Source of the DNA: Candidatus Daviesbacteria bacterium
GTDB taxonomy: Bacteria; Patescibacteriota; Microgenomatia; Daviesbacterales; UBA10151
Direction of reading: 5' to 3'
Assembly (NCBI GenBank): GCA_016187025.1
Contig: JACPKM010000004.1
Location: 35,212 to 99,211, forward strand
DNA length: 64,000 bases
Both the position numbers and the translations under genes were made by a program. The notes under the pieces are model-generated. The model was not told where the DNA came from, ran no database searches, and saw only the letters and a list, made by a program, of their open reading frames with translations. This document shows, piece by piece, positions 4,403 to 19,613 of the stretch (positions within the stretch are counted from its first letter, which is position 1; each line of letters starts with the position of its first letter).

Positions 4403-5302
4403 CTATTTTGGTACCCAGATCCAATAACCTGACTGGTTTGAAGGATGAATCGAAGGTGGGTTATTAGGGCCTCCAATGGCTTTAGTATCTGGTACCAAAT
4501 ATGCAGATGAGGATGATTCTTGTCTGGGGGTAGAGCTCCAGACTCCGGTTGCTCCAACTGCTCCTTGGTTTTTTAGGATGATTGAAAGATCCATGTTGTT
4601 TATCACGCCGTCCTTGTTTAAATCTATATTATCATTCCAACTGGTAGAGGAGGGTGTTGTTCCAAAAGCAGATTTCGCAATATCTGAATCTGCAGTATTT
4701 ATCATATTGTCTTCATTTAAATCTCCACTTAACAGATTCACAACATCTCCGTTATTTAGATTTGTTTTGGTAGGTGACATTAAGAAAGCTGATGCTGTAG
4801 CAATTTGAGCAGGCCCTTTAATAATTGCTGTATAGGTATTGTTTGGGGTAAGTCCAGCCAGGGAGATATTGTCAAATTCACCAGATGTCGGTAGGTCAAT
4901 GGTAAAGCTTAATAGATACTTAGGGCTGGTATTTACTGCGCCCTCTATTATTCCTACAAACATCTTTGCATTTTGCTTATCCCCTGGCCTTCCTTGTAAA
5001 CTCAATTTAATACTTAAAGTAGGTCCAAATGATACAGAAAGTGTAGGCGGGTCTGATGATTGGGGAGTGGGAGAAGCCTCAGTGGTATCCTGTTCTGAAA
5101 GAAGTTTTAGTTCATCAATTGGTGATAGCTTCTCCTCAGGTATGGCAGAAGGGGTACTGATGGTAAAAGTCTTTTTAACAGCTTGAGAGGCTGATGATTT
5201 AATTGTTTGGTTTTGTGAGGCAAGATATGCTCCCACAGGAATAGAAAGCACTAAAAAAATATACACTCCTAAAATAACCCTGATCTTAGTAGAGGAGAAC
5301 AT
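4403..5302 (-). CDS. secreted protein with a type-I dockerin-like double Ca-binding repeat
   Basis: N-terminal signal/TM (ILGVYIFLVLSIPVGAYLA). The paired segments DLNEDNMINTADSDIAKSAFG and DLNKDGVINNMDLSIILKNQG (approx. nt 4570-4735) match the dockerin D.N.DG.IN..D pattern. Confidence 0.6.
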   Translation of the reverse strand: MFSSTKIRVILGVYIFLVLSIPVGAYLASQNQTIKSSASQAVKKTFTISTPSAIPEEKLSPIDELKLLSEQDTTEASPTPQSSDPPTLSVSFGPTLSIKLSLQGRPGDKQNAKMFVGIIEGAVNTSPKYLLSFTIDLPTSGEFDNISLAGLTPNNTYTAIIKGPAQIATASAFLMSPTKTNLNNGDVVNLLSGDLNEDNMINTADSDIAKSAFGTTPSSTSWNDNIDLNKDGVINNMDLSIILKNQGAVGATGVWSSTPRQESSSSAYLVPDTKAIGGPNNPPSIHPSNQSGYWIWVPK

Positions 5303-6477: not shown

Positions 6478-9400
6478 ATGAATTTTCTTACTGCCTTCAG
6501 GAAGAGGGTTTTTTCTTTTTTCCTGAACCACCGCTTAAGTTTAAGTAAACCTCAGCAAATTGTTTTGATTGCTACAACTGGTTTGTTAATGACATCAGCC
6601 GCAGCATTGGGAGTAAGGGAAATGCTGATTCAATCTCAAACCAGCTTAAAAGCTCAACCAGAATCAAAAGATGTTCTAGCAGCTACCTCAGAAAGATTAA
6701 GGCTTACTGGAAATATCTCATTTAATCTACCAGCCTCATTTAATGATCTGATTAAGCTAAAATCAGGCCAGGTGGTAGAAGGGGTATCGGTGTTTAAGGG
6801 GGCTGTCAAATTCGAAGGGGATGTGCAATCTCTAGAGATTGAAAATGGTACTATCACCGCCTCAACCATCACTGCCTCAAACTTAGTTTACTCTCTTACA
6901 GCTGGGGATGGAATTTCTGTGACTACCGGACAAAGTCCGACTGTCAAAAATACCGGAGTGTTATCTTTGCAATCTAAAACAGGGGCATTAAAGCTTGAAG
7001 AAGGTACGGATATCACAATTGACGGACTTAAGATTACTGATAAATCCACATTATCAACTGTTTATTCAAGAGGAGGGTGTTCCTCATGCATCACAGATGC
7101 AGATGTGGCAGCAGGACTGACTATCTCAGGAGGAACAGTTGATAACTCTCCGATTGGAGCAACTACTGCCTCAACCGGTGCCTTTACTACTTTAACTGCC
7201 TCATCAACCCTTGCTGTGACAGGTAATTTATCAGCTGCAGCACAGGTGTTAGGTAAAAATGGTTCAGCGTCCTCACCCTCATATTCTTTTACCAATGACA
7301 CGGATACCGGTATCTATAGATTCGGAGCCAATTCTTTGGGCATCATTACCGGTGGCTCTGCCACATCCGGTTTAACCATTGATTCATCAGGTAATGTAGG
7401 TATTGGCACCACCTCACCATCTTCTGGTCTAGATGTGGTAGGCAGTGCCAATATTTCAGGTTCTTTAACAGTTTTGGGCAATTTAATAGCTGCCTCTTCC
7501 GGTACCTCAGGTTATTGGCAGAGATCAGGCACAACTATCTCACCATCAACCTCAGGTGATGCCATCACCACATCAGGTAATATTTCTACGTCTGGCTCCG
7601 GTACTATTACATCAAATTCCCTGCTTACTGCATCAAATGGACTCACTTTAACCACTGGGGCTTTAAATTTAACCTCAACTTCTGGTCAGGCAAATCTTGC
7701 TTTAACTGGTAATACAAATGCCTTTAGTATTAATGGATTATTTGGGGTAGATACCACTAGCAATAGAGTTGGCATTGGTACTACTGCTCCAACTACGGCA
7801 TTACAAGTTTTAGGAGGTAATGTTGGCATTGGTACATCCGGAGCAGGAGCTGCATTACAGGTTAATGGGGGAGGATTATTTGGCTGGGGAACAGCCTCTT
7901 CTGCCTTGTCCTCAGGAGCTATCCTGGGAGTAAATGGTAATGTGGGGGTTGGTACCACTTCCCCCATTGGAGCCCTGCATGTTGTAGGACAGTGTGTGGC
8001 TCGGGGGACAAGAATTAGGAAAAGGCGTAAAGGGTCAAGGGGTAAGGGTGAAGATGAATGGGAAGATGTGCCTGTGGAAGATATCAAACCTGATGATGAA
8101 GTATTATCCTTAAATGATACTACTGGTGAATGGGAATGGCATAAAGTAGAAAAAACCTTAAATAAAGGAATCCAGGAAACAATTAAGATTGTTACCCAGT
8201 CAGGCAAATGGATTGAAACCACTGATGAACACCCTTACTTAACTATTGAAAAAGATATCAAACCACTACCTGAATCTGGGAAATTTGAGGTAGATCTTTC
8301 CACCAGAATGGAAAAGAATGCTGATACCTTTGTAGCTATAGCCAACAACAAAGCTGCAGCAGTCATTAAAGTTAGTGTCAAAGATAAACAAAGCTTGAAA
8401 AAACTCTTTGCTAAATCCCCCAGACTGTTTGCTCCCACCCTTTATGCCCTTTGTATTATAGAGATTATTAAAAAGGGTAAGATCAGTCCATCACAACTAA
8501 AGATTGATACTGACTATCTGGGTTACGAAAGAAGAATTGAAAAATTAATTCATAATTTCTATCCGGAGATTGTCATCACTTTTGCGGAAGTTGGTCACGG
8601 AATAGGCTCATATGCGGACAGGGCTGTCTATCAGGCTTTTAGCCAAAAGAAAAAGACCGGGGCCGGCTTGAATCTCTATGGATTCCCGACTGCAGAATGG
8701 TTACACCATGACTGGTTACACGGATCCGCCACCCACACGGTCTTAACAAGCAAAGCCTATCACAAATTTACTGATTTGTCAATGGCCAGCGCTGTCTGGA
8801 AAAAGGTTAAACACCTAAAACCGGGAGATGTGATCGCCACCTCTGCCGGTTGGGAAAAAGTCCAAAATATATACTCTACCGGCAGAAAACAAACCTATGA
8901 CTTACAGATTGAAGGCACACATAACTTTGTAGGCAATGATATTGTTGCCCATAATACATATATTTCCGGTAATTTAGGGATAGGAGTGTCTTCTCCTACC
9001 AGTTTTGCCCTGCAGGTAGCAGGTAATATTGGTCCAAATGTTGATAATTCCTATGATTTAGGCTCAACATCAAATAGATGGAGAACTTTGCATGTAGGTC
9101 CGGGATCAGTGGTTGTCCACAATGATGCAGCAGATACACTTAAGGCTACTTTAGGTTTTACCGGATCAACAGCCCAGCTTATTACAGACTCATCCTCCCC
9201 CTTACAGCTTGTTACCGGTACAAACAACTTAGGATTATATCTAAATACCTCAGGCAATGTGGGTATTGGCAAGACCAATCCAAATTCTGCTTTAAATGTA
9301 ATCGGTAATGTTGGCATTGGTACATCCGGAGCAGGAGCAGCCTTACAGGTAAATGGTGGGGTAGTATTAGGCTGGGGGACTGCATCTGTTGCAGCACCAA

Positions 9401-12400
9401 GCAATGGTCTGGCTATTAATGGCAACCTAGGTATTGGTACCACTTCCACTAATGCCATGTTGGATGTCAGGGGTTCAACCATTATTGCTCCAACCACCAA
9501 TGGTACTACCAATGCCTTAATTGTGAGGGCTGCTCCAGGATCAACAGGCAATATCTTTAATCTAACAGATACAACAGGTTCAACCTCTTACCTTTCTGTC
9601 TCATCAGCCGGGGCCTTAACAGTTGGAGGCTCTACTTTAACAAATTCCGGACTTTTAGCCTCATCCGGAGCCATTAATCTGACCTCTTCTGCCAATGCCA
9701 TTGTAGGTACTGCTGTGGAAGGTGGCTGGACCATGAACTCTAATACTTTCACCTACAGGAGGGTGATGACTGTTGTAAACAATGATGGCTCAAATGCCCT
9801 GCCTTCAAACTATGAAGTGAGTGTCTCTTTATCCGGCTCAACTGCTTCCCAAATCTATTCTAACTCCCAGACAGACTATGATGATTTCAGGATAGCTTAC
9901 TCTACCAATGGCACAACTTTTACAGAAGTTACCAGAAATGTTTCATCCTTTACTTCCTCATCTGTTGCTTTCACCTTCCAAACCCAGGCCTCTATTGCAG
10001 CCTCCGGTTCTACCTCAAACTATTACATCTATTACAAAAACTCTTCTTTAACATGCTCATCCTGTACATATACCGGTAATGTGCAGCTGGATTCTATGGA
10101 TTCATCTGTTGGATCCTGGACTAGTGCTGATACCACTCAGTTTCCCTTAGCTCAGGAAACAGCCTCTATCTATACAGAAGGCACAGGTTCTTTAAAAGCC
10201 TCAGGGACTGTTGATAATATCGGGACTTTCTCAACCACCAACCAAAATGCCCTCTCCGGCGCCAGGACTAACTTTGGATTTAATGCCTCCAGTATTGGAG
10301 GAACTACTTATCTATATGCAGTCGGAGGTTCAACAGACGGAACAGCAGGCAATGCCCAGTCAACTGTATTTAGGACCTCAGCTGCAGCAGCCACCGGCCA
10401 TGTAGCTGCTTGGACAACTAACTCAAACTCTATCTCTGAGGCAAGATTAGATAACTCTGTAGCAGTAGCTACACCACCAGTTGATGGGGGAGATGGAACT
10501 GATGGGGCTATTGATTTAACTAATGGTTCTGGTGCAGGAGGATGTACAGGCACAGGACTTTCCTGGAGTGGATCTACCTGTACTATTGCCACAGCTACCA
10601 AATCTACCTTTAACTTTACAACAATTAATATTCCTTCTGGAACCACTCTAACCACAGATGGGCCAAAAACTACCACAAACTTTGTCACTATTAAAGCAAC
10701 TGGTAACGTAACTGTAGCTGGAACCATTAATTTAGCAGGAAAAGGGTATAGCGCACCTGTAAGCGGCCAAACCGCAGGAAGAGGTCCGGGAGGAGGGGCT
10801 TGTAGCTCATGTCAAGCTGCAGGAGGCGCCGGCCATGGGGGTGCTGGTGGTCAAGGTGGAGGTTACTCTGCTAGAACAGCAGCTGGTGCAACATATACTA
10901 CAGATGATTCTGGTAGCTCAGGCGCAACAGGGCAGGGCGGTGTCGGAGGAGCTGGCGGAGGAGGAATAAAAATTTCAAGCGGGGGTACAGTTATTGTATC
11001 AGGAACAATAAATACCAATGGTTCTAGTGGAACTGGTGATAGCAATACTGGAAGTGGAGGTGGAAGTGGGGGGAGGATTGCATTACAAGGAGGTACTCTT
11101 ACGATTAGCGGATCATTAACTGCAAATGGTGGAAACGGGGCAGATGGCACTCCTTCTGTAAATTATGGAGGGGGAGGTGGAGGTGGAGGAAGGATCACCT
11201 TTGAGTATTCAGGATCTGCCGATACCACTGGTTCAACAATAACTGTAACGGGGGGTAATGGAGGCGCTGGAACATGGACAGCAACTGCTTCAGGCACAGC
11301 TGGTTCTTCAGGAACAAATACATCAACGGCCTCAAGCCCTACTTTGTATGTATTAGGTGGTAAAAATACTTCAGGGACTGCACAGTCCGGGATATCTCAG
11401 GGGACTGTTTCTTCATCAGATGGGTCAGTGGGGGCATTTTCTGCTTCAGGTACTTCTTTATCCCAAGCACTTTATGGGCATACATCTAATGCAATCACCA
11501 TCAGTACTACTAATTATCTGTATGTAATTGGCGGTAATAATGGCACTACTGACCAGACCACTGTCTACAAAGGCTCTTTTTCCGATGCCAATATTTCCTC
11601 TTTTACCACCACTTCCCAGACCCAACTTAGTACAGGTATTTCCTATCATGCTGTGGCAACAGGGAGTATCTCATCAACTAATTATCTTTGGGTAATTGGC
11701 GGGTTAAATGGTTCTACTGCCCAGAGTACAGTTTACAAAGGTACATTTGATGCATCAGGAAACTTAACTTTAACTACCACCTCACAAAATGCTTTGCCCC
11801 AGGGGTTATATGGCCATCAGGCTATCTTTGCCACAGTTGGCTCTAATAACTATCTTTATGTTTATGGCGGGATAACCACAGGCGGGACCAGGCAGACCAC
11901 TGTTTACAAAGCAAGTGTAGATGCATCAGGGAATGTTGGTGCATGGAGTACAGTCGGCCAGACACAGCTATCCACAGCCATCTCCAACTTTGGAGCCTTT
12001 AACTTTACAGATTCTGATTCTAATCAGTATGCATATATAGTTGGCGGTAATACCGGTACTGCCCAAACTGCTGTTACTAAAGCTTCATATTCACCAATTG
12101 ACCAGACAGGCTATTCTGCCTCAAGGACTATTACCTCCAGTAACTGGTCAAACAAAAATGATTTGCAGTACAAAGTCTATTCCTCCAGGACAGGCTCATA
12201 TATGGTGCTGGAATACTCAGAAGATGGTTCTACCTGGCAGACCTGTACCTTTACAGTGTCTAGTGCCAATACCTGGGAAACCAAGACCTGTGATCTGACA
12301 GGTGTGGCTACCACAGGCAGGGATGCTGTGACTAATTTAAGGTTAAGAGTCACCTCCTCAACTACCACTGCCTGGACAGCTTATGTTGATGATATTAATG

Positions 12401-14718
12401 CTGTTACCAATGCCTCAACTATCTCAAACACTGCCTCATCAGGATCTCCACTTTCAGGTGCAGCCAATCTAACCTTAAATGCCCAGGGTACAGGATTAAT
12501 TTTACTAAACTATGATGCAACATCAGGTCTGGCAGGCACCGGAGGATTGGCACTTTACAACGGCGGCACCAGCCCGCTATTTTCTGTAGACAGTAGTGGC
12601 AATGTGGGTATTGGCACTACCTATATATCAGCCAAACTTCAGGTTAAAGGTGCAGGCACCGGAACCGGAATATCATTTATCACTGCAGACTCAAATGGAT
12701 TACACCGCTTTGCCATACTGGATAATGGTAATGTGGGTATTGGTACAACTAATCCATTATCCACTTTCCACATTGGTACAGGGTTGGCCATTGGTTCTAA
12801 CACTTTATCTTTCTCAACCTCAACAGGCAGACTAGGTATTGGTACAACATCTCCCGGTGCCACCTTAGGTATTACAGGTAATCTAGGTATTGGGGCCTCA
12901 TTTGCCAATTCAGCTGCTCCATCATTTGGTTTAGCAGTGCAGGGTAATGTAGGTATCGGGACAACCTCTCCTGATTACCCCTTACATGTCATAGGTAATG
13001 TAGGAATAGGCAGTAGTTTAACTGTGACAGGATTAGGTGTGTTAAATGGTGGCCTGCAAACAACCAATATTAATGCTACTTCTTTAACCACCTCAGGAAA
13101 TGTGGGAGTTGGTGGATCAATCACCGGCTTTGGGGCATTAAATGGCTTAAATGTTACAGGGTTAACAAGTTTAGCAGGGCTAAACGCCAGTGGTAATGTA
13201 GGTATTGGCTCTTCATTAACAGTTACTGGTCTTTCGGTATTAAATGGTGGAATAGCTGCTCCAACGCTATCTTTAACAAACTTGACCTCAGGTGGAGCAT
13301 TGTTTACCGGTCCTAATGGGTTAGTATCACAAAATATACCAAACTACTACTGGGATAATACCAATAACAGATTAGGGATTGGTACCTCTGCACCAGGTTC
13401 TCAGTTGGCGATAATCGGTAATGTAGGTATTGGTACCTCTGGGGCAGGGGCTGCTTTACAGGTTAATGGAGGAGGATTATTTGGCTGGGGGACTGCATCT
13501 ACTGCCCTGTCATCCGGGGCTATATTGGGGGTTAATGGAAATGTGGGTATTGGTACTACCTCTCCTACAGCTTTGTTACAGGTCCAGGGGAGCGGTAGCA
13601 TGCCTTCCTTGCTGGTAACTTCCGGTGGAAATATAGGGATAGGGACTTCTGTGACATCAAACCCCATCACTGTTGGCACAGACGGCTCAACCGGTAATGG
13701 GGCATATCTGTCTACAGGAGGAACGTGGACAAATGGGTCATCCTTTGAATTTAAAGAAAACTTTGAATCTTTAAATAACTTGGATATTCTATCAAAGATT
13801 ATTGAGTTAGATATATCTTCTTGGAACTATAAACTGGAACCGGGCATAAAACACATTGGGCCTGTGGCTGAGCAGTTTTACTCTGTGTTTGGACTGGGAA
13901 ATGATAATAAACATATCTCAACCATTGATCCAGCAGGTATAGCACTGTTAGGAATACAAGGCTTGTCAGGACAGATTAATGATTTAAGAATAAGACTTAA
14001 TGAATCCACCCCTTCTGCCAAGCTATCTTTGGAAGATAAAATAGCTTCACTTGAGGCCAGGATCAAGAATCTGGAATCAAAAGAAGGTACATCTTCTGCA
14101 GAGGCCACATCATCTGCTCAGGAGTCTTCCGCTTCTGCGCTCTTGGCTCAAAGCCCTCAGCTTACCTTAACTCCTCCTGATGTATTACTTGCAACAGGTT
14201 CTGCTACTTTGGCAAATCTAGCTGTTACTTCTGAAGCAACTTTTTCAGGTAAACTTGCAGCATATAACCTAAATGTCTCTGAATCATTTAAAGTATTCGG
14301 GGAAACTTCTCTTGGTAAAACCAGTATTGCGGGGGATGTAAATATAGATGGAACTATGAATATCAATGGTAATTCTTTGTCAGTGATTGGCACACTTTTT
14401 ATACAAAACAGTCCATTTTCCAAGGATATAGATTTGTTTAATGGTAAAGTAAAAATAGATAATACGGGTAATTTAACTGTTCAAAAACTTACAGTTTCCC
14501 AAAAGACCTTGGGGACAGTGACAATTCCTGCAGGGCAGAATCAATTTACAATTTACAATTTACAATTTACAAATAAATCCAAAGTATTTGTGACTCCTGA
14601 AAAACCGGTGGCAATTGGGGTCAGCAAAGACGCTGCCAACTCCCAATTTACTATCCAATTAGACAAAGCCCAAAGCAGTGATTTGAAAGTAGACTGGTGG
14701 ATCGTAGATGTTGAGTGA
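6478..14718 (+). CDS. giant (2746 aa) membrane-anchored fibre-like surface protein with an intein
   Basis: Single long ORF with an N-terminal TM anchor and many GN(V/L)GIGTTSP..L.V.G repeats. It carries an intein (7993-8955), a Gly-rich beta-helix-like region (~10740-11290), 5-6 Kelch-like Y.YV.GG...T.VYK repeats (~11500-12100), a C-terminal peptidase-S74/intramolecular-chaperone-like segment (FKENFESLNNLDILSKIIELDISSWNYKLEPGIKHIGPVAEQFYSVFGLG..., ~13740-14000) and a coiled coil. Confidence 0.85.
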   Translation: MNFLTAFRKRVFSFFLNHRLSLSKPQQIVLIATTGLLMTSAAALGVREMLIQSQTSLKAQPESKDVLAATSERLRLTGNISFNLPASFNDLIKLKSGQVVEGVSVFKGAVKFEGDVQSLEIENGTITASTITASNLVYSLTAGDGISVTTGQSPTVKNTGVLSLQSKTGALKLEEGTDITIDGLKITDKSTLSTVYSRGGCSSCITDADVAAGLTISGGTVDNSPIGATTASTGAFTTLTASSTLAVTGNLSAAAQVLGKNGSASSPSYSFTNDTDTGIYRFGANSLGIITGGSATSGLTIDSSGNVGIGTTSPSSGLDVVGSANISGSLTVLGNLIAASSGTSGYWQRSGTTISPSTSGDAITTSGNISTSGSGTITSNSLLTASNGLTLTTGALNLTSTSGQANLALTGNTNAFSINGLFGVDTTSNRVGIGTTAPTTALQVLGGNVGIGTSGAGAALQVNGGGLFGWGTASSALSSGAILGVNGNVGVGTTSPIGALHVVGQCVARGTRIRKRRKGSRGKGEDEWEDVPVEDIKPDDEVLSLNDTTGEWEWHKVEKTLNKGIQETIKIVTQSGKWIETTDEHPYLTIEKDIKPLPESGKFEVDLSTRMEKNADTFVAIANNKAAAVIKVSVKDKQSLKKLFAKSPRLFAPTLYALCIIEIIKKGKISPSQLKIDTDYLGYERRIEKLIHNFYPEIVITFAEVGHGIGSYADRAVYQAFSQKKKTGAGLNLYGFPTAEWLHHDWLHGSATHTVLTSKAYHKFTDLSMASAVWKKVKHLKPGDVIATSAGWEKVQNIYSTGRKQTYDLQIEGTHNFVGNDIVAHNTYISGNLGIGVSSPTSFALQVAGNIGPNVDNSYDLGSTSNRWRTLHVGPGSVVVHNDAADTLKATLGFTGSTAQLITDSSSPLQLVTGTNNLGLYLNTSGNVGIGKTNPNSALNVIGNVGIGTSGAGAALQVNGGVVLGWGTASVAAPSNGLAINGNLGIGTTSTNAMLDVRGSTIIAPTTNGTTNALIVRAAPGSTGNIFNLTDTTGSTSYLSVSSAGALTVGGSTLTNSGLLASSGAINLTSSANAIVGTAVEGGWTMNSNTFTYRRVMTVVNNDGSNALPSNYEVSVSLSGSTASQIYSNSQTDYDDFRIAYSTNGTTFTEVTRNVSSFTSSSVAFTFQTQASIAASGSTSNYYIYYKNSSLTCSSCTYTGNVQLDSMDSSVGSWTSADTTQFPLAQETASIYTEGTGSLKASGTVDNIGTFSTTNQNALSGARTNFGFNASSIGGTTYLYAVGGSTDGTAGNAQSTVFRTSAAAATGHVAAWTTNSNSISEARLDNSVAVATPPVDGGDGTDGAIDLTNGSGAGGCTGTGLSWSGSTCTIATATKSTFNFTTINIPSGTTLTTDGPKTTTNFVTIKATGNVTVAGTINLAGKGYSAPVSGQTAGRGPGGGACSSCQAAGGAGHGGAGGQGGGYSARTAAGATYTTDDSGSSGATGQGGVGGAGGGGIKISSGGTVIVSGTINTNGSSGTGDSNTGSGGGSGGRIALQGGTLTISGSLTANGGNGADGTPSVNYGGGGGGGGRITFEYSGSADTTGSTITVTGGNGGAGTWTATASGTAGSSGTNTSTASSPTLYVLGGKNTSGTAQSGISQGTVSSSDGSVGAFSASGTSLSQALYGHTSNAITISTTNYLYVIGGNNGTTDQTTVYKGSFSDANISSFTTTSQTQLSTGISYHAVATGSISSTNYLWVIGGLNGSTAQSTVYKGTFDASGNLTLTTTSQNALPQGLYGHQAIFATVGSNNYLYVYGGITTGGTRQTTVYKASVDASGNVGAWSTVGQTQLSTAISNFGAFNFTDSDSNQYAYIVGGNTGTAQTAVTKASYSPIDQTGYSASRTITSSNWSNKNDLQYKVYSSRTGSYMVLEYSEDGSTWQTCTFTVSSANTWETKTCDLTGVATTGRDAVTNLRLRVTSSTTTAWTAYVDDINAVTNASTISNTASSGSPLSGAANLTLNAQGTGLILLNYDATSGLAGTGGLALYNGGTSPLFSVDSSGNVGIGTTYISAKLQVKGAGTGTGISFITADSNGLHRFAILDNGNVGIGTTNPLSTFHIGTGLAIGSNTLSFSTSTGRLGIGTTSPGATLGITGNLGIGASFANSAAPSFGLAVQGNVGIGTTSPDYPLHVIGNVGIGSSLTVTGLGVLNGGLQTTNINATSLTTSGNVGVGGSITGFGALNGLNVTGLTSLAGLNASGNVGIGSSLTVTGLSVLNGGIAAPTLSLTNLTSGGALFTGPNGLVSQNIPNYYWDNTNNRLGIGTSAPGSQLAIIGNVGIGTSGAGAALQVNGGGLFGWGTASTALSSGAILGVNGNVGIGTTSPTALLQVQGSGSMPSLLVTSGGNIGIGTSVTSNPITVGTDGSTGNGAYLSTGGTWTNGSSFEFKENFESLNNLDILSKIIELDISSWNYKLEPGIKHIGPVAEQFYSVFGLGNDNKHISTIDPAGIALLGIQGLSGQINDLRIRLNESTPSAKLSLEDKIASLEARIKNLESKEGTSSAEATSSAQESSASALLAQSPQLTLTPPDVLLATGSATLANLAVTSEATFSGKLAAYNLNVSESFKVFGETSLGKTSIAGDVNIDGTMNINGNSLSVIGTLFIQNSPFSKDIDLFNGKVKIDNTGNLTVQKLTVSQKTLGTVTIPAGQNQFTIYNLQFTNKSKVFVTPEKPVAIGVSKDAANSQFTIQLDKAQSSDLKVDWWIVDVE
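7993..8955 (+). other. intein (321 aa) inserted in the giant surface protein; +1 extein residue Thr
   Basis: Starts with Cys (CVARGTRIR...), has block B TDEHPYL, and C-terminal blocks F/G TYDLQIEGTHNFVGNDIVAHN followed by Thr. The flanking exteins continue the NVGIGTTSP repeat pattern. The central ~200 aa has no LAGLIDADG or HNH motifs that I can see. Confidence 0.8.
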
Positions 14719-14833: not shown

Positions 14834-15637
14834 ATGAAAAAACTGCCCATTTTAATATTTGCTGCAATACTTGTTTTCTCCATTGTTTTTCCTGTATTTG
14901 CTCAGGAAGAGCAGGAACAAGAGGCAACAGGGTCATCAGATGCCTCCATGGGGGTTGCAAATTATTTGGTTATTGAAGGGGATGTGAGGCCTGGAAATAT
15001 TATTTGCTCTGCAAGTAATGGGTATTCACTGTGTGATGAAGCCTATGATTCCAGTATGCTGGGGGTAGTGGCAGAAAATCCAGCAGTGTCTTTTAATTTA
15101 ACAGGTTCAGATGAGTCTTCTCATCCTGTTATCTCCTCAGGCACAACTTATGTTTTAGTAAATAGTGAAGGCGGAGAAATTAAAAAAGGAGATTTAATAA
15201 CTACATCTGCTACAAACGGCGTTGGAACAAAAGCTTCCAAAAGCGGTTTTGTTCTGGGCTCTGCCATTGAAGGTTTTAATCCCGGTAAACCAACAGATTC
15301 AGGGACAATCGCAGTTTCACTGTATATGCACTACAGCAACCTCCAATCTGCAAAAGTTCAAGGCCAGCTGCAGGATGTATTTAAGCTAAGCGCCATTGCT
15401 GCTACAGAATCTCCCAGTGAAGTTTTTAAATACTTTTTGGCAGGGCTTGTAATCATGTCTTCTGTGGCAGCAGGGCTTTATACCTTTGGCAGGACAGCCA
15501 GCAGGGGTTTGGAGGCTTTAGGCAGAAATCCGATGGCCCAAAGAATCATTCAGATGGGGATTGCCATGAATGTGGTATTGACTGTAGCGATAGTTAGTGC
15601 AGGAGTAGTGATAGCCTATTTCATCTTACGGCTTTAA
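14834..15637 (+). CDS. atypical ATP-synthase c-subunit-like protein: signal peptide + ~180-aa extracytoplasmic domain + C-terminal c-type TM hairpin
   Basis: N-terminus MKKLPILIFAAILVFSIVFPVFA|QEE. The C-terminal 70 aa (LAGLVIMSSVAAGLYTFGRTASRGLEALGRNPMAQRIIQMGIAMNVVLTVAIVSAGVVIAYFIL) align with the F/V-type c subunit helix-loop(R-N/Q-P)-helix. The gene sits first in the alpha-gamma-beta-epsilon operon. There is no Asp/Glu at the helix-2 position 18 residues after the loop Pro. Confidence 0.5.
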   Translation: MKKLPILIFAAILVFSIVFPVFAQEEQEQEATGSSDASMGVANYLVIEGDVRPGNIICSASNGYSLCDEAYDSSMLGVVAENPAVSFNLTGSDESSHPVISSGTTYVLVNSEGGEIKKGDLITTSATNGVGTKASKSGFVLGSAIEGFNPGKPTDSGTIAVSLYMHYSNLQSAKVQGQLQDVFKLSAIAATESPSEVFKYFLAGLVIMSSVAAGLYTFGRTASRGLEALGRNPMAQRIIQMGIAMNVVLTVAIVSAGVVIAYFILRL

Positions 15638-15639
15638 TT

Positions 15640-17096
15640 ATGGATAAGTTTAAAAAATATCAAAATCACTATTTGGGTCAAGTTGTTGAGATTAAGTTTC
15701 CCTTGGTAAAGGTTGCAAACTTAGTAGGAGCATCTTTAAATGAAATAGTAGTATTTGAGAGAAATCAGGCAGGTCAAATCTATAGTCTGGAAGATCATAC
15801 AGCAGAGGTGTTGGTTTTTGATAAGCGCCCGGTAACCACAGGCTCAAAGGTTGCTTTAACAGGAGAAAAGAGCCGTATACCTGTTGGAAACCAGCTGTTG
15901 GGTGAGTTAATTGATCCTTTAGGAAACCTTTTAAAAAAACGCAGGTCTTATAAAAGACCTAAGCAGTTTTACCCATTGGAAGTAAGGCCCTTGGGAATTG
16001 GAAAAAGAGCCAGAATAAAGCAACCCTTTGTAACTGGTGTATCAATGGTCGATCTTCTAGTACCGCTGGGCAAAGGTCAAAGAGAGCTTATCTTAGGTGA
16101 TAGAAAAACCGGTAAAAGCTCCTTTTTAATATCCATTGTTAAAGGACAGCTTATACTGGAAAAAAACCCTCCAGTTGTAATTTATGCCTGCATTGGCAAA
16201 AGAAAAAGTGAAATCAAAGCTTTGGAAGAATATTTTAGCAAAGAAGGGTTAATGGAGAAAATGGTCATGGTGGCAACAAGCTCTTTAGATTCACCCAGCT
16301 TGATTTATTTAACTCCGTTTTCTGCTATGGCTGTTGCTGAGTATTTCAGGGATTTAGGAAAAGATGTGTTAGTAATTATGGATGATTTATCAACTCATGC
16401 CAAATTTTATAGAGAGATTTCTCTTCTTGCCAGACGCTTTCCAGGCAGGGATTCCTATCCTGGGGACATTTTCTACACCCATGCCAGGCTTTTGGAAAGA
16501 GCAGGTAATTTTAAAGTAGGGAGTAGAGAAGTATCTATTACCTGCTTGCCTGTTGCAGAGACCATGGAAGGGGATTTAACAGGTTATATCACTACCAACT
16601 TAATGGGTGTTACAGATGGGCATATCTTTTTTGACTCAAACGTTTTTTACAAAGGCAGAAGACCTGCGATTAATGTTCCTTTGTCTGTGACCAGGGTTGG
16701 TAAACAGACTCAAAATAAACTGGAGCAGTCAATCTCTGGGGCAATTTATGAGTTTTTAAACAAATACGAAACAGCTATAAACTTGTCCCACTTTGGGGCA
16801 GAATTGTCTGATGAGACAAGAAAAAATCTTATTCTGGGGGAAAAACTTGCTCAATTTTTTGACCAGCCTTATTCACTTTCTTTGCGGGAAGAGTTGCAAA
16901 TTCTGCTGCTTTCTTTAATCTGGCTTGGACTGGTAGGAGATGATCCGGTATTTCCAGTTTCAATCTGCAAGATAAACTTAATTAAGAACTTTGAAAAACC
17001 CCATATTAAAACACTTATCTTATCAGTTATCAGCGCTGATGATTTTGATAGTTTACTAGATAACATTGCAAAGAAAAAAGAGGAGCTTATAATTTT

Positions 17097-17112
<16 letters not shown>
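15640..17112 (+). CDS. atpA: F-type ATPase alpha subunit
   Basis: Strong similarity to alpha: GDRKTGKSS P-loop, ...ISLLARRFPGRDSYPGDIFYTHARLLERAG. Confidence 0.9.

Positions 17113-19613
<2,501 letters not shown>

Follow-up and report, generated by a model that had tools for sequence, protein, structure and literature searches.

A predicted class-1 intein with an RNase H-like insert in the precursor of a giant fibre-like protein of Candidatus Daviesbacteria

Introduction

Inteins are biased towards replication and repair proteins, and only bacterial intein-like (BIL) domains have been placed in hypervariable bacterial proteins (PMC7765530). A locus of Candidatus Daviesbacteria raises the question whether a complete intein can reside in a giant surface protein, and what it might carry into such a host. 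The locus lies in a stretch of 64,000 nucleotides (assembly GCA_016187025.1, contig JACPKM010000004.1, positions 35,212 to 99,211, forward strand), hereafter called the window, to which all coordinates refer. An original prediction, made from the letters alone, had placed an intein at 7993-8955 inside a giant repeat-rich surface or fibre protein, with Cys1 in CVARGTR, a block B TDEHPYL, blocks F/G and a +1 Thr. It had regarded this host as unusual and the element as an intein rather than a BIL domain.

Here, we report that the element carries the sequence hallmarks of a canonical class-1 intein and belongs to a family found across the candidate phyla radiation (CPR). Between the two halves of its splicing domain lies a domain with a predicted RNase H-like fold. 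We consider it probable that the whole is a canonical class-1 intein in a giant fibre precursor, with an RNase H-fold, homing-type nuclease as its insert.

Results and discussion

Sequence evidence for a class-1 intein

The open reading frame (ORF) of the host gene is uninterrupted across the element. The features of the element and its host gene are:

6478-14718, + strand: host gene, 2746-residue precursor of a giant fibre-like protein (ORF list, translation and exact look-up)
7993-8955, + strand: predicted intein, 321 residues, host residues 506-826, in frame; matched by curated profiles and by mini-inteins of the PDB
7993-8016, + strand: block A, CVARGTRI, with the nucleophile Cys1
8011-8049, + strand: Arg/Lys tract RIRKRRKGSRGKG in the first hairpin after block A; family consensus CVTGDTxLRRRRRRKK
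8215-8241, + strand: block B, ETTDEHPYL, with T77 and H80 of the TxxH motif, invariant in alignments A1 and A3
8275-8739, + strand: central inserted domain, intein residues 95-249; predicted RNase H-like fold, closest to RNase HII, putative homing nuclease
8893-8955, + strand: blocks F and G, TYDLQIEGTHNFVGNDIVAHN, with D303, H310, H320 and N321
8956-8958, + strand: +1 Thr, host T827, predicted nucleophile of trans-esterification

Translation of 7993-8955 yields 321 residues that start with CVARGTRI, contain ETTDEHPYL and end in TYDLQIEGTHNFVGNDIVAHN; the next residue is Thr. Three curated models recognise the element: Intein_splicing of Pfam (PF14890) with 53.7 bits (cut-off 35.8), the intein N-terminus model TIGR01445 with 24.6 (cut-off 24.5) and the intein C-terminus model TIGR01443 with 27.6 (cut-off 15.6). 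The best matches of phmmer among PDB sequences are the Spl DnaX mini-intein (E 3e-10) and DnaB inteins (1e-8). All features of a class-1 intein were found, namely Hint blocks A, B, F and G, Cys1, TxxH, the His-Asn pair and the +1 Thr, in an in-frame insertion that is missing from homologous host sequences. After removal of the element, the junction ...GNVGVGTTSPIGALHVVGQ/TYISGNLGIGVSSP... (a slash outside brackets marks a splice site throughout) preserves the ~20-residue spacing of the GNxGxG repeat. As judged from its sequence, the element at 7993-8955 is a real, canonical class-1 intein. Neither a further intein nor a further RNase H-like domain was found elsewhere in the 64-kb window.

The coordinates and the 321 residues given by the original prediction are borne out by translation and profiles, and each splicing hallmark it named is present and conserved throughout the family. 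Its expectation that removal restores the repeat phase agrees with the spacing at the junction, and the profile search it proposed as a check placed Intein_splicing, TIGR01443 and TIGR01445 all above their cut-offs. An N-terminal anchor, fibre repeats and a Peptidase_S74 domain support its description of the host. Two features go beyond that account: the RNase H-fold central domain, where LAGLIDADG or HNH might have stood, and the Arg/Lys tract after block A.

A family of related inteins in the CPR

A word-indexed search with the intein returned eight relatives, all from CPR genomes, all in GNVGIGT-repeat proteins and all with the same junction, HVVGQ/C...AHN/TYI. Among cluster representatives, giant proteins with as many as 7694 residues contain at least 33 inteins, in some cases two per protein, and 456 stretches encode a relative in a scan with one genome per species. 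Junction counts and taxonomy were taken from the best 71 loci of these 456 stretches. Almost all of the 71 belong to CPR/Patescibacteria, including Daviesbacteria, Gottesmanbacteria, Woesebacteria, Shapirobacteria, Kaiserbacteria, Saccharibacteria, Peregrinibacteria, WWE3 and others. The predominant insertion position reads LHVxGQ/C...AHN/TY(I/L)xGN. At all 111 C-terminal junctions the +1 residue is Thr, with TY(I/L) at 75 of them; the N-side is mostly VVGQ or VEGQ, VVGQ being the commonest with 44 copies.

Residue conservation was counted with a hidden Markov model, motifs not being presupposed, on more than 100 copies at about 70 loci of different CPR species. Cys1 is found in all 89 copies that cover the position, T77 in 117 of 120, H80 in 117 of 118, D303 in 123 of 123 and H310 in 121 of 123; H320 and N321 are each present in 113 of 113. 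Near-invariant catalytic residues across phylum-level CPR lineages are hard to explain other than by selection for splicing, and we think it very likely that splicing occurs.

Some members stand apart. Records titled 'uncultured Gammaproteobacteria bacterium ... binchicken' (L007, L009, L017, L024, L028 and others) carry the CPR-type fibre gene with the intein, so that their taxonomic labels look unreliable. A protein of 7694 residues (P0135), a different type of giant protein that lacks GNVGIGT repeats, holds at residues 3630-3971 an intein with a poly-basic tract and an RNase H-like insert. Its junction, ...TSPEAQ/C...AHN/TQVGS, implies that the family is not strictly tied to one motif.

Cleavage or a relic instead of splicing?

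Hint modules in hypervariable, probably extracytoplasmic bacterial proteins are shared with BIL domains of types A and B (Amitai et al. 2003, via PMC7765530) and with pretoxin-HINT (PF07591). The element might thus be a self-cleaving protease of this kind, which cuts the exported fibre at one or both junctions and does not religate it. The host, a non-conserved, hypervariable and probably exported repeat protein, would be a typical home of a BIL domain (PMC7765530), and it already contains a self-cleaving module, Peptidase_S74. PT-HINT scores 27.6 bits, just below its gathering cut-off of 27.7, in a match that covers the N-terminal half only, and what lies downstream is a fibre of 1920 residues, not a toxin. 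The solved BIL domain 2lwy is matched with E 0.054 only, against E 1e-10 for true inteins, a far stronger similarity. Unlike BIL and pretoxin-HINT domains, the family of the window always has a +1 nucleophile (111 of 111), keeps C1, TxxH and HN and matches the full intein model; the window intein carries a nuclease insert, and the same repeat array continues in register on both flanks. Selection on the +1 Thr is required by splicing and not by cleavage, which argues against a protease, and a nuclease insert would be purposeless in a processing module. With +1 Thr, HN and the insert present, only the type of host fits a BIL domain; every sequence-level test favours a canonical intein, as the original prediction had held, and we regard cleavage without religation as very unlikely.

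Even more improbable, to the point of being far-fetched, is that the intein has become fixed as a splicing-dead relic and is retained as an additional globular domain of the mature fibre. Degenerate central regions in some close relatives could be read in this way, but all catalytic residues are intact here and family-wide, and a retained intein would break the regular beta-repeat. Its composition of 15% Lys/Arg and 13% Asp/Glu also contrasts with the flanking fibre, where each charge class accounts for 4-5% and Gly, Ala, Ser and Thr for 51%.

Empty sites and copy number

Most of the 247 host homologues lack a Hint domain, and in one homologue (P0011) ...SPSQALHVIGTSQFNGN... runs straight through the equivalent motif. 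The window itself contains a paralogous, intein-free site:

13417-13565, + strand: paralogous stretch of 149 nt, 83% identical to 7816-7964, which lies immediately upstream of the insertion site; it continues ...GNVGIGTTSPTALLQVQGSGS without an intein

Within the fetched loci and proteins no uninterrupted HVxG(Q/H/E)-T(Y/F)(I/L) was found. A scan of metagenomes with a degenerate DNA pattern yielded 20 natural uninterrupted sites, for example LHVVGDTYISGNTGIGTT, LHVVGDTYISGN, GIGTTTPLSKLHVVGDTYISGNTGIGTT and LHVSGQTYL. The insertion point thus belongs to the natural variation of the fibre repeat, and the notion that Gln at -1 and Thr-Tyr at +1 and +2 always travel with the intein was dropped because of these 20 sites.

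These findings bear on two further points of the original prediction. It had suggested looking for intein-less alleles; intein-free versions exist both as Hint-free homologues and as natural empty sites, and together with the paralogous repeat they speak against a conserved, non-excised Hint module in all homologues. Its view of the host as unusual stands against the literature, given the known bias of inteins (PMC7765530), and falls within CPR genomes, where the pairing is common (456 stretches).

Sister loci hold from one to about seven copies. About seven inteins lie within ~15 kb in the homologous giant gene of another Daviesbacteria contig (JACPKL010000001.1, L001:6036-21611). They are arranged in extein-plus-intein units of ~1.65 kb with 60-94% DNA identity, so that duplication of such units also adds to copy number. 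Given the length and near-identity of the repeats, the number of copies in a metagenome-assembled genome is uncertain. Taken together, the sequence data describe the sporadic distribution of an element that appears to be mobile, or at least expanding.

At the same locus, four inteins are broken by indels that fall in a variable linker, directly after 77 nt in which the copies do not differ at all, and gene calls begin inside one intein and finish inside the next. The interrupted copies may be natural split inteins; assembly chimeras or pseudogenes are at least as likely, and the position of the breaks just past the identical stretch means that they may be assembly artefacts.

The central domain

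Profile comparisons of the central domain with Pfam, NCBIfam (E up to 1), PHROGs and PDB sequences gave no match, Pfam returning noise only; it is thus not one of the known intein endonuclease families (LAGLIDADG, HNH, GIY-YIG, His-Cys box). In the predicted structure the fold is RNase H-like, with RNase HII as best structural match. The core beta1-beta2-beta3-alpha-beta4-alpha-beta5-alpha is present with acidic residues at the ends of beta1 and beta4, where D, E and D are invariant across the domain family. Candidate catalytic residues are D101, E107 and D172, plus D209, which is His in the family. The insert has no detectable sequence similarity to members of the superfamily (RNase H2/H3, retroviral integrase core, Argonaute PIWI, endonuclease V). 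From RNase HII it differs further in its size of ~150 residues, in its incomplete DEDD set with Gln (Leu in the window) for the second acidic residue, and in its location inside inteins or tiny free-standing genes; at the sequence level it falls outside the RNase HII family.

A full HMMER scan of 1.84 billion representatives yielded 87 relatives of the central domain, either embedded in inteins of giant proteins or free-standing with 140-200 residues. A profile search gave 197, nearly all free-standing, unnamed and mostly from CPR genomes. The free-standing genes of the family number ~200 and encode ~150 residues each. Two of them (150-175 residues; L002:6001-6522 and L004:6001-6474) sit among housekeeping genes. 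One has the EF-G and DnaJ genes on either side and a DUF559 (Vsr-like) gene in the vicinity, and the other adjoins a 23S_rRNA_IVP gene and giant LamG proteins.

Sister inteins carry a different domain at the same position. A NYN domain (Pfam, 95 and 67 bits) is found in the inteins at L001:13300-14500, in P0139 (residues 1894-2250) and in P0177 (residues 1178-1523), and further sister inteins contain other, unrecognised inserts. Interchangeable nucleases at one position are to be expected of mobile inteins. The closest relatives (L024 and L028) are highly similar to the window intein in their splicing blocks, with central regions that are shorter and unrecognisable, which fits the known cycle of endonuclease decay after fixation. 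On balance the insert is somewhat more probably an active nuclease than an inactive domain.

The Arg/Lys tract

The tract after block A comprises 4-9 Arg/Lys residues in the family, and AlphaFold2 confidence is low at intein residues 15-20. It is present in 29 of 33 sampled inteins, and each of these 29 has an RNase H-like, NYN or other large insert or the remnant of one. None of the four inteins without it has a recognisable nuclease, and three of the four share their host protein with an intein that bears the tract. Splicing in this host therefore does not depend on the tract, whose presence follows that of the nuclease. In the simplest reading, the Arg/Lys hairpin probably aids nucleic-acid binding; a speculative alternative is that it delays Sec translocation.

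The host protein

The host protein is recorded as MBI2600974.1 (HYW42_03395) from a metagenome-assembled genome of Candidatus Daviesbacteria and annotated as 'hypothetical protein'. Its parts are:

6478-7992, + strand: N-extein, residues 1-505, ending ...GNVGVGTTSPIGALHVVGQ, with Gln at -1
6559-6615, + strand: single N-terminal hydrophobic segment, residues 28-46, with basic residues ahead; Kyte-Doolittle mean 2.0 in a 19-residue window
8956-14718, + strand: C-extein, 1920 residues plus stop; fibre repeats, Gly-rich region, weak Kelch-like repeats
13741-13890, + strand: Peptidase_S74 within the C-extein; Pfam PF13884, 24.5 bits against a cut-off of 22

Once the intein is spliced out, the mature protein would have 2425 residues. 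The Kyte-Doolittle scan revealed no comparably hydrophobic segment elsewhere in the protein. Residues 28-46 are predicted from sequence to form a signal anchor, the only one, so that the remainder is presumably extracellular. That the host is a membrane-anchored, mostly extracytoplasmic fibre is well supported, though not proven. It contains GNVGIGT-type repeats, and many homologues are named tail fiber domain-containing or beta-strand repeat proteins. Peptidase_S74, an intramolecular, self-cleaving chaperone of tail fibres and endosialidases, is found in the host and in many homologues; next to the intein, it gives one protein two different autoprocessing modules.

Proposed mechanism and its weak points

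By established intein chemistry, splicing would start with an N-S acyl shift at Cys1 of the Gln505-Cys506 bond, helped by T77 and H80 of block B. The hydroxyl of Thr827 (+1) would attack the thioester to give a branched ester, and cyclisation of Asn826, aided by H825 and by D808 and H815 of block F, would free the intein of 321 residues. An O-N shift would then leave a normal Gln505-Thr827 peptide bond in a fibre of 2425 residues with the repeat register intact. The freed intein would bear an RNase H-fold domain between the Hint halves, at the place of the LAGLIDADG or HNH endonuclease in other inteins. This domain most likely serves as the element's own DNA nuclease, by which the intein could spread to copies of the motif LHVxG(D/Q)-TY(I/L)xGN that lack it. 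More speculatively, the poly-Arg hairpin next to Cys1 may be an arm with which the nuclease binds DNA, or its positive charge may slow translocation. As such a brake, it would keep the intein from passing the Sec channel, on the cytoplasmic side, before splicing is complete; the nuclease would stay with the chromosome and the ligated fibre would be exported.

RNase HII acts on RNA-DNA hybrids, and NYN domains are mostly RNases. An alternative to homing, then, is that the element splices and its insert is an RNA or hybrid nuclease of cellular, defensive or toxic function that splicing sets free, or an inactive remnant, and that the inteins spread by unit duplication and repeat recombination. 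Two unrelated nuclease folds at the same position of closely related inteins form the pattern of selfish endonuclease acquisition, which speaks against this alternative, as do related inteins at the same motif in many phylum-level CPR lineages, the correlation of the Arg/Lys tract with the nuclease and the decay of the insert in close relatives. In its favour, RNase HII is the best structural match, the sister domain belongs to a family made up mostly of RNases, and the free-standing homologues are surrounded by housekeeping genes, with no obvious placement within target genes.

Several further observations bear on this choice and count against the mechanism proposed above. RNase HII and NYN act mostly on RNA or hybrids, so that DNA homing is not the sole reading. 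The tandem units of ~1.65 kb at L001 indicate duplication, a spread that needs no nuclease. The -1 residue is usually Asp in empty sites, with Gln in occupied ones. Compared with the consensus, the window copy is altered at three positions that are near-invariant in the family: Leu replaces Gln at 102, Asp replaces Glu at 174 and Asp replaces His at 209 (Q17, E89 and H124 of the domain). Should the precursor pass through Sec in unfolded form, the intein would fold and splice outside the cell, and a homing nuclease, carried off from the chromosome, would be useless there. Lastly, both the splicing and the nuclease steps are read from sequence and predicted structure.

Some of these objections can be answered in part. 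Each of the three substitutions recurs in other members (P0139 VDLS, P0131 DTDY, P0130 SPAD); the view that the window nuclease has clearly decayed was dropped on this ground, and inactivity cannot be asserted. As to export, splicing may precede or pause it, the nuclease may have another role, or the host may not be exported. We give a little less than even weight to homing by the insert, and see the splicing element with a non-homing insert as a credible but clearly less probable explanation.

Comparison with known systems

Canonical class-1 inteins with Thr at +1, for which Mxe GyrA is an example and of which the DnaX and DnaB mini-inteins (PDB 7cfv, 1mi8) are nearest, share with the window intein Hint blocks A/B/F/G, Cys1, TxxH, HN and the +1 nucleophile. 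They likewise insert in frame at a conserved motif, place a nuclease between the halves of the splicing domain and are sporadically distributed, with inserts that decay. They differ in their hosts, since the window host is a giant membrane-anchored fibre and not an enzyme of replication, repair or nucleotide metabolism. The present family, in addition, has several copies at equivalent repeat positions of one gene, an RNase H-like (or NYN) insert instead of LAGLIDADG/HNH, and the Arg/Lys tract after block A. One could go further and propose a CPR-wide family of Thr+1 inteins specialised on one motif of giant fibres, with interchangeable RNase HII-like and NYN homing nucleases and the poly-Arg hairpin as an adaptation to the host; we regard this wider proposal as tentative and, taken in full, rather doubtful.

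The S74 domain and the GNVGIGT-type repeats are shared with phage tail-fibre and endosialidase S74 proteins. In contrast to these, the host gene is chromosomal in a CPR bacterium, lies beside the ATP synthase operon and encodes 2746 residues with an N-terminal anchor and an intein; a MerR-type helix-turn-helix (HTH) occurs in host homologues as well. Full-text literature searches, whose coverage was incomplete, gave no account of an intein in a surface protein of the CPR, nor of an RNase H-like or NYN domain inserted in an intein. A lead to a tail-fibre intein in phage MIJ3 concerns a DNA polymerase intein instead. The family has apparently not been described before.

If the reading is correct, the host range of canonical inteins extends to giant surface-type proteins across the CPR, with about seven copies at one locus. 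A homing function would add a new fold to the four classical families of homing endonucleases, listed as H-N-H, His-Cys box, GIY-YIG and LAGLIDADG (PMC7765530), and would give a function to an unannotated CPR gene family of ~200 free-standing genes. It would also pose the question of where splicing happens in a protein that is probably exported unfolded, and of how the nuclease reaches DNA. In practical terms, the family would offer many natural Cys1/Thr+1 inteins whose flanking needs are short and known (Q before and TY after the intein). CPR annotation now labels such genes 'hypothetical' and often breaks them at inteins.

Fibre architecture and gene neighbourhood

Beyond the intein, the fibre combines several types of repeat in a mosaic. 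Window positions 10500-11200 (C-extein residues ~520-750) encode a Gly-rich stretch (GGAGHGGAGGQGGG..., GSGGGSGGRI...) and, after it, weak Kelch-like YLYV(I/L)GG repeats (Pfam Kelch_1, 21.7 bits). About 270 residues remain C-terminal of the Peptidase_S74 domain. Fibre homologues (P0009, P0011, P0013, P0027, P0131 and L024) have a MerR-type HTH at their start and then a membrane segment. A DNA-binding head is an odd partner for a huge extracellular fibre; the protein encoded in the window has no such HTH and starts at the membrane anchor.

The G+C content is 40.7% in the intein, 44.0% in the host gene and 38.5% in the window, values that are uninformative. The genes for ATP synthase alpha, gamma and beta directly follow the giant gene (15640-19360), and ribosomal protein L1, a class A penicillin-binding protein and a lysyl-phosphatidylglycerol synthase-like protein are encoded nearby; the DNA of the window is cellular. 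In both Daviesbacteria genomes the giant gene adjoins ATP synthase alpha/gamma/beta, upstream of it in the window and downstream in L001 (L001:2517-6039). Of the neighbouring genes, 4403-5302 (- strand) encodes a dockerin-domain protein (29 bits), and the product of 14834-15637 (+ strand) matches a minor capsid protein of phages below the threshold (XM1_gp53, 21.9 bits against 27).

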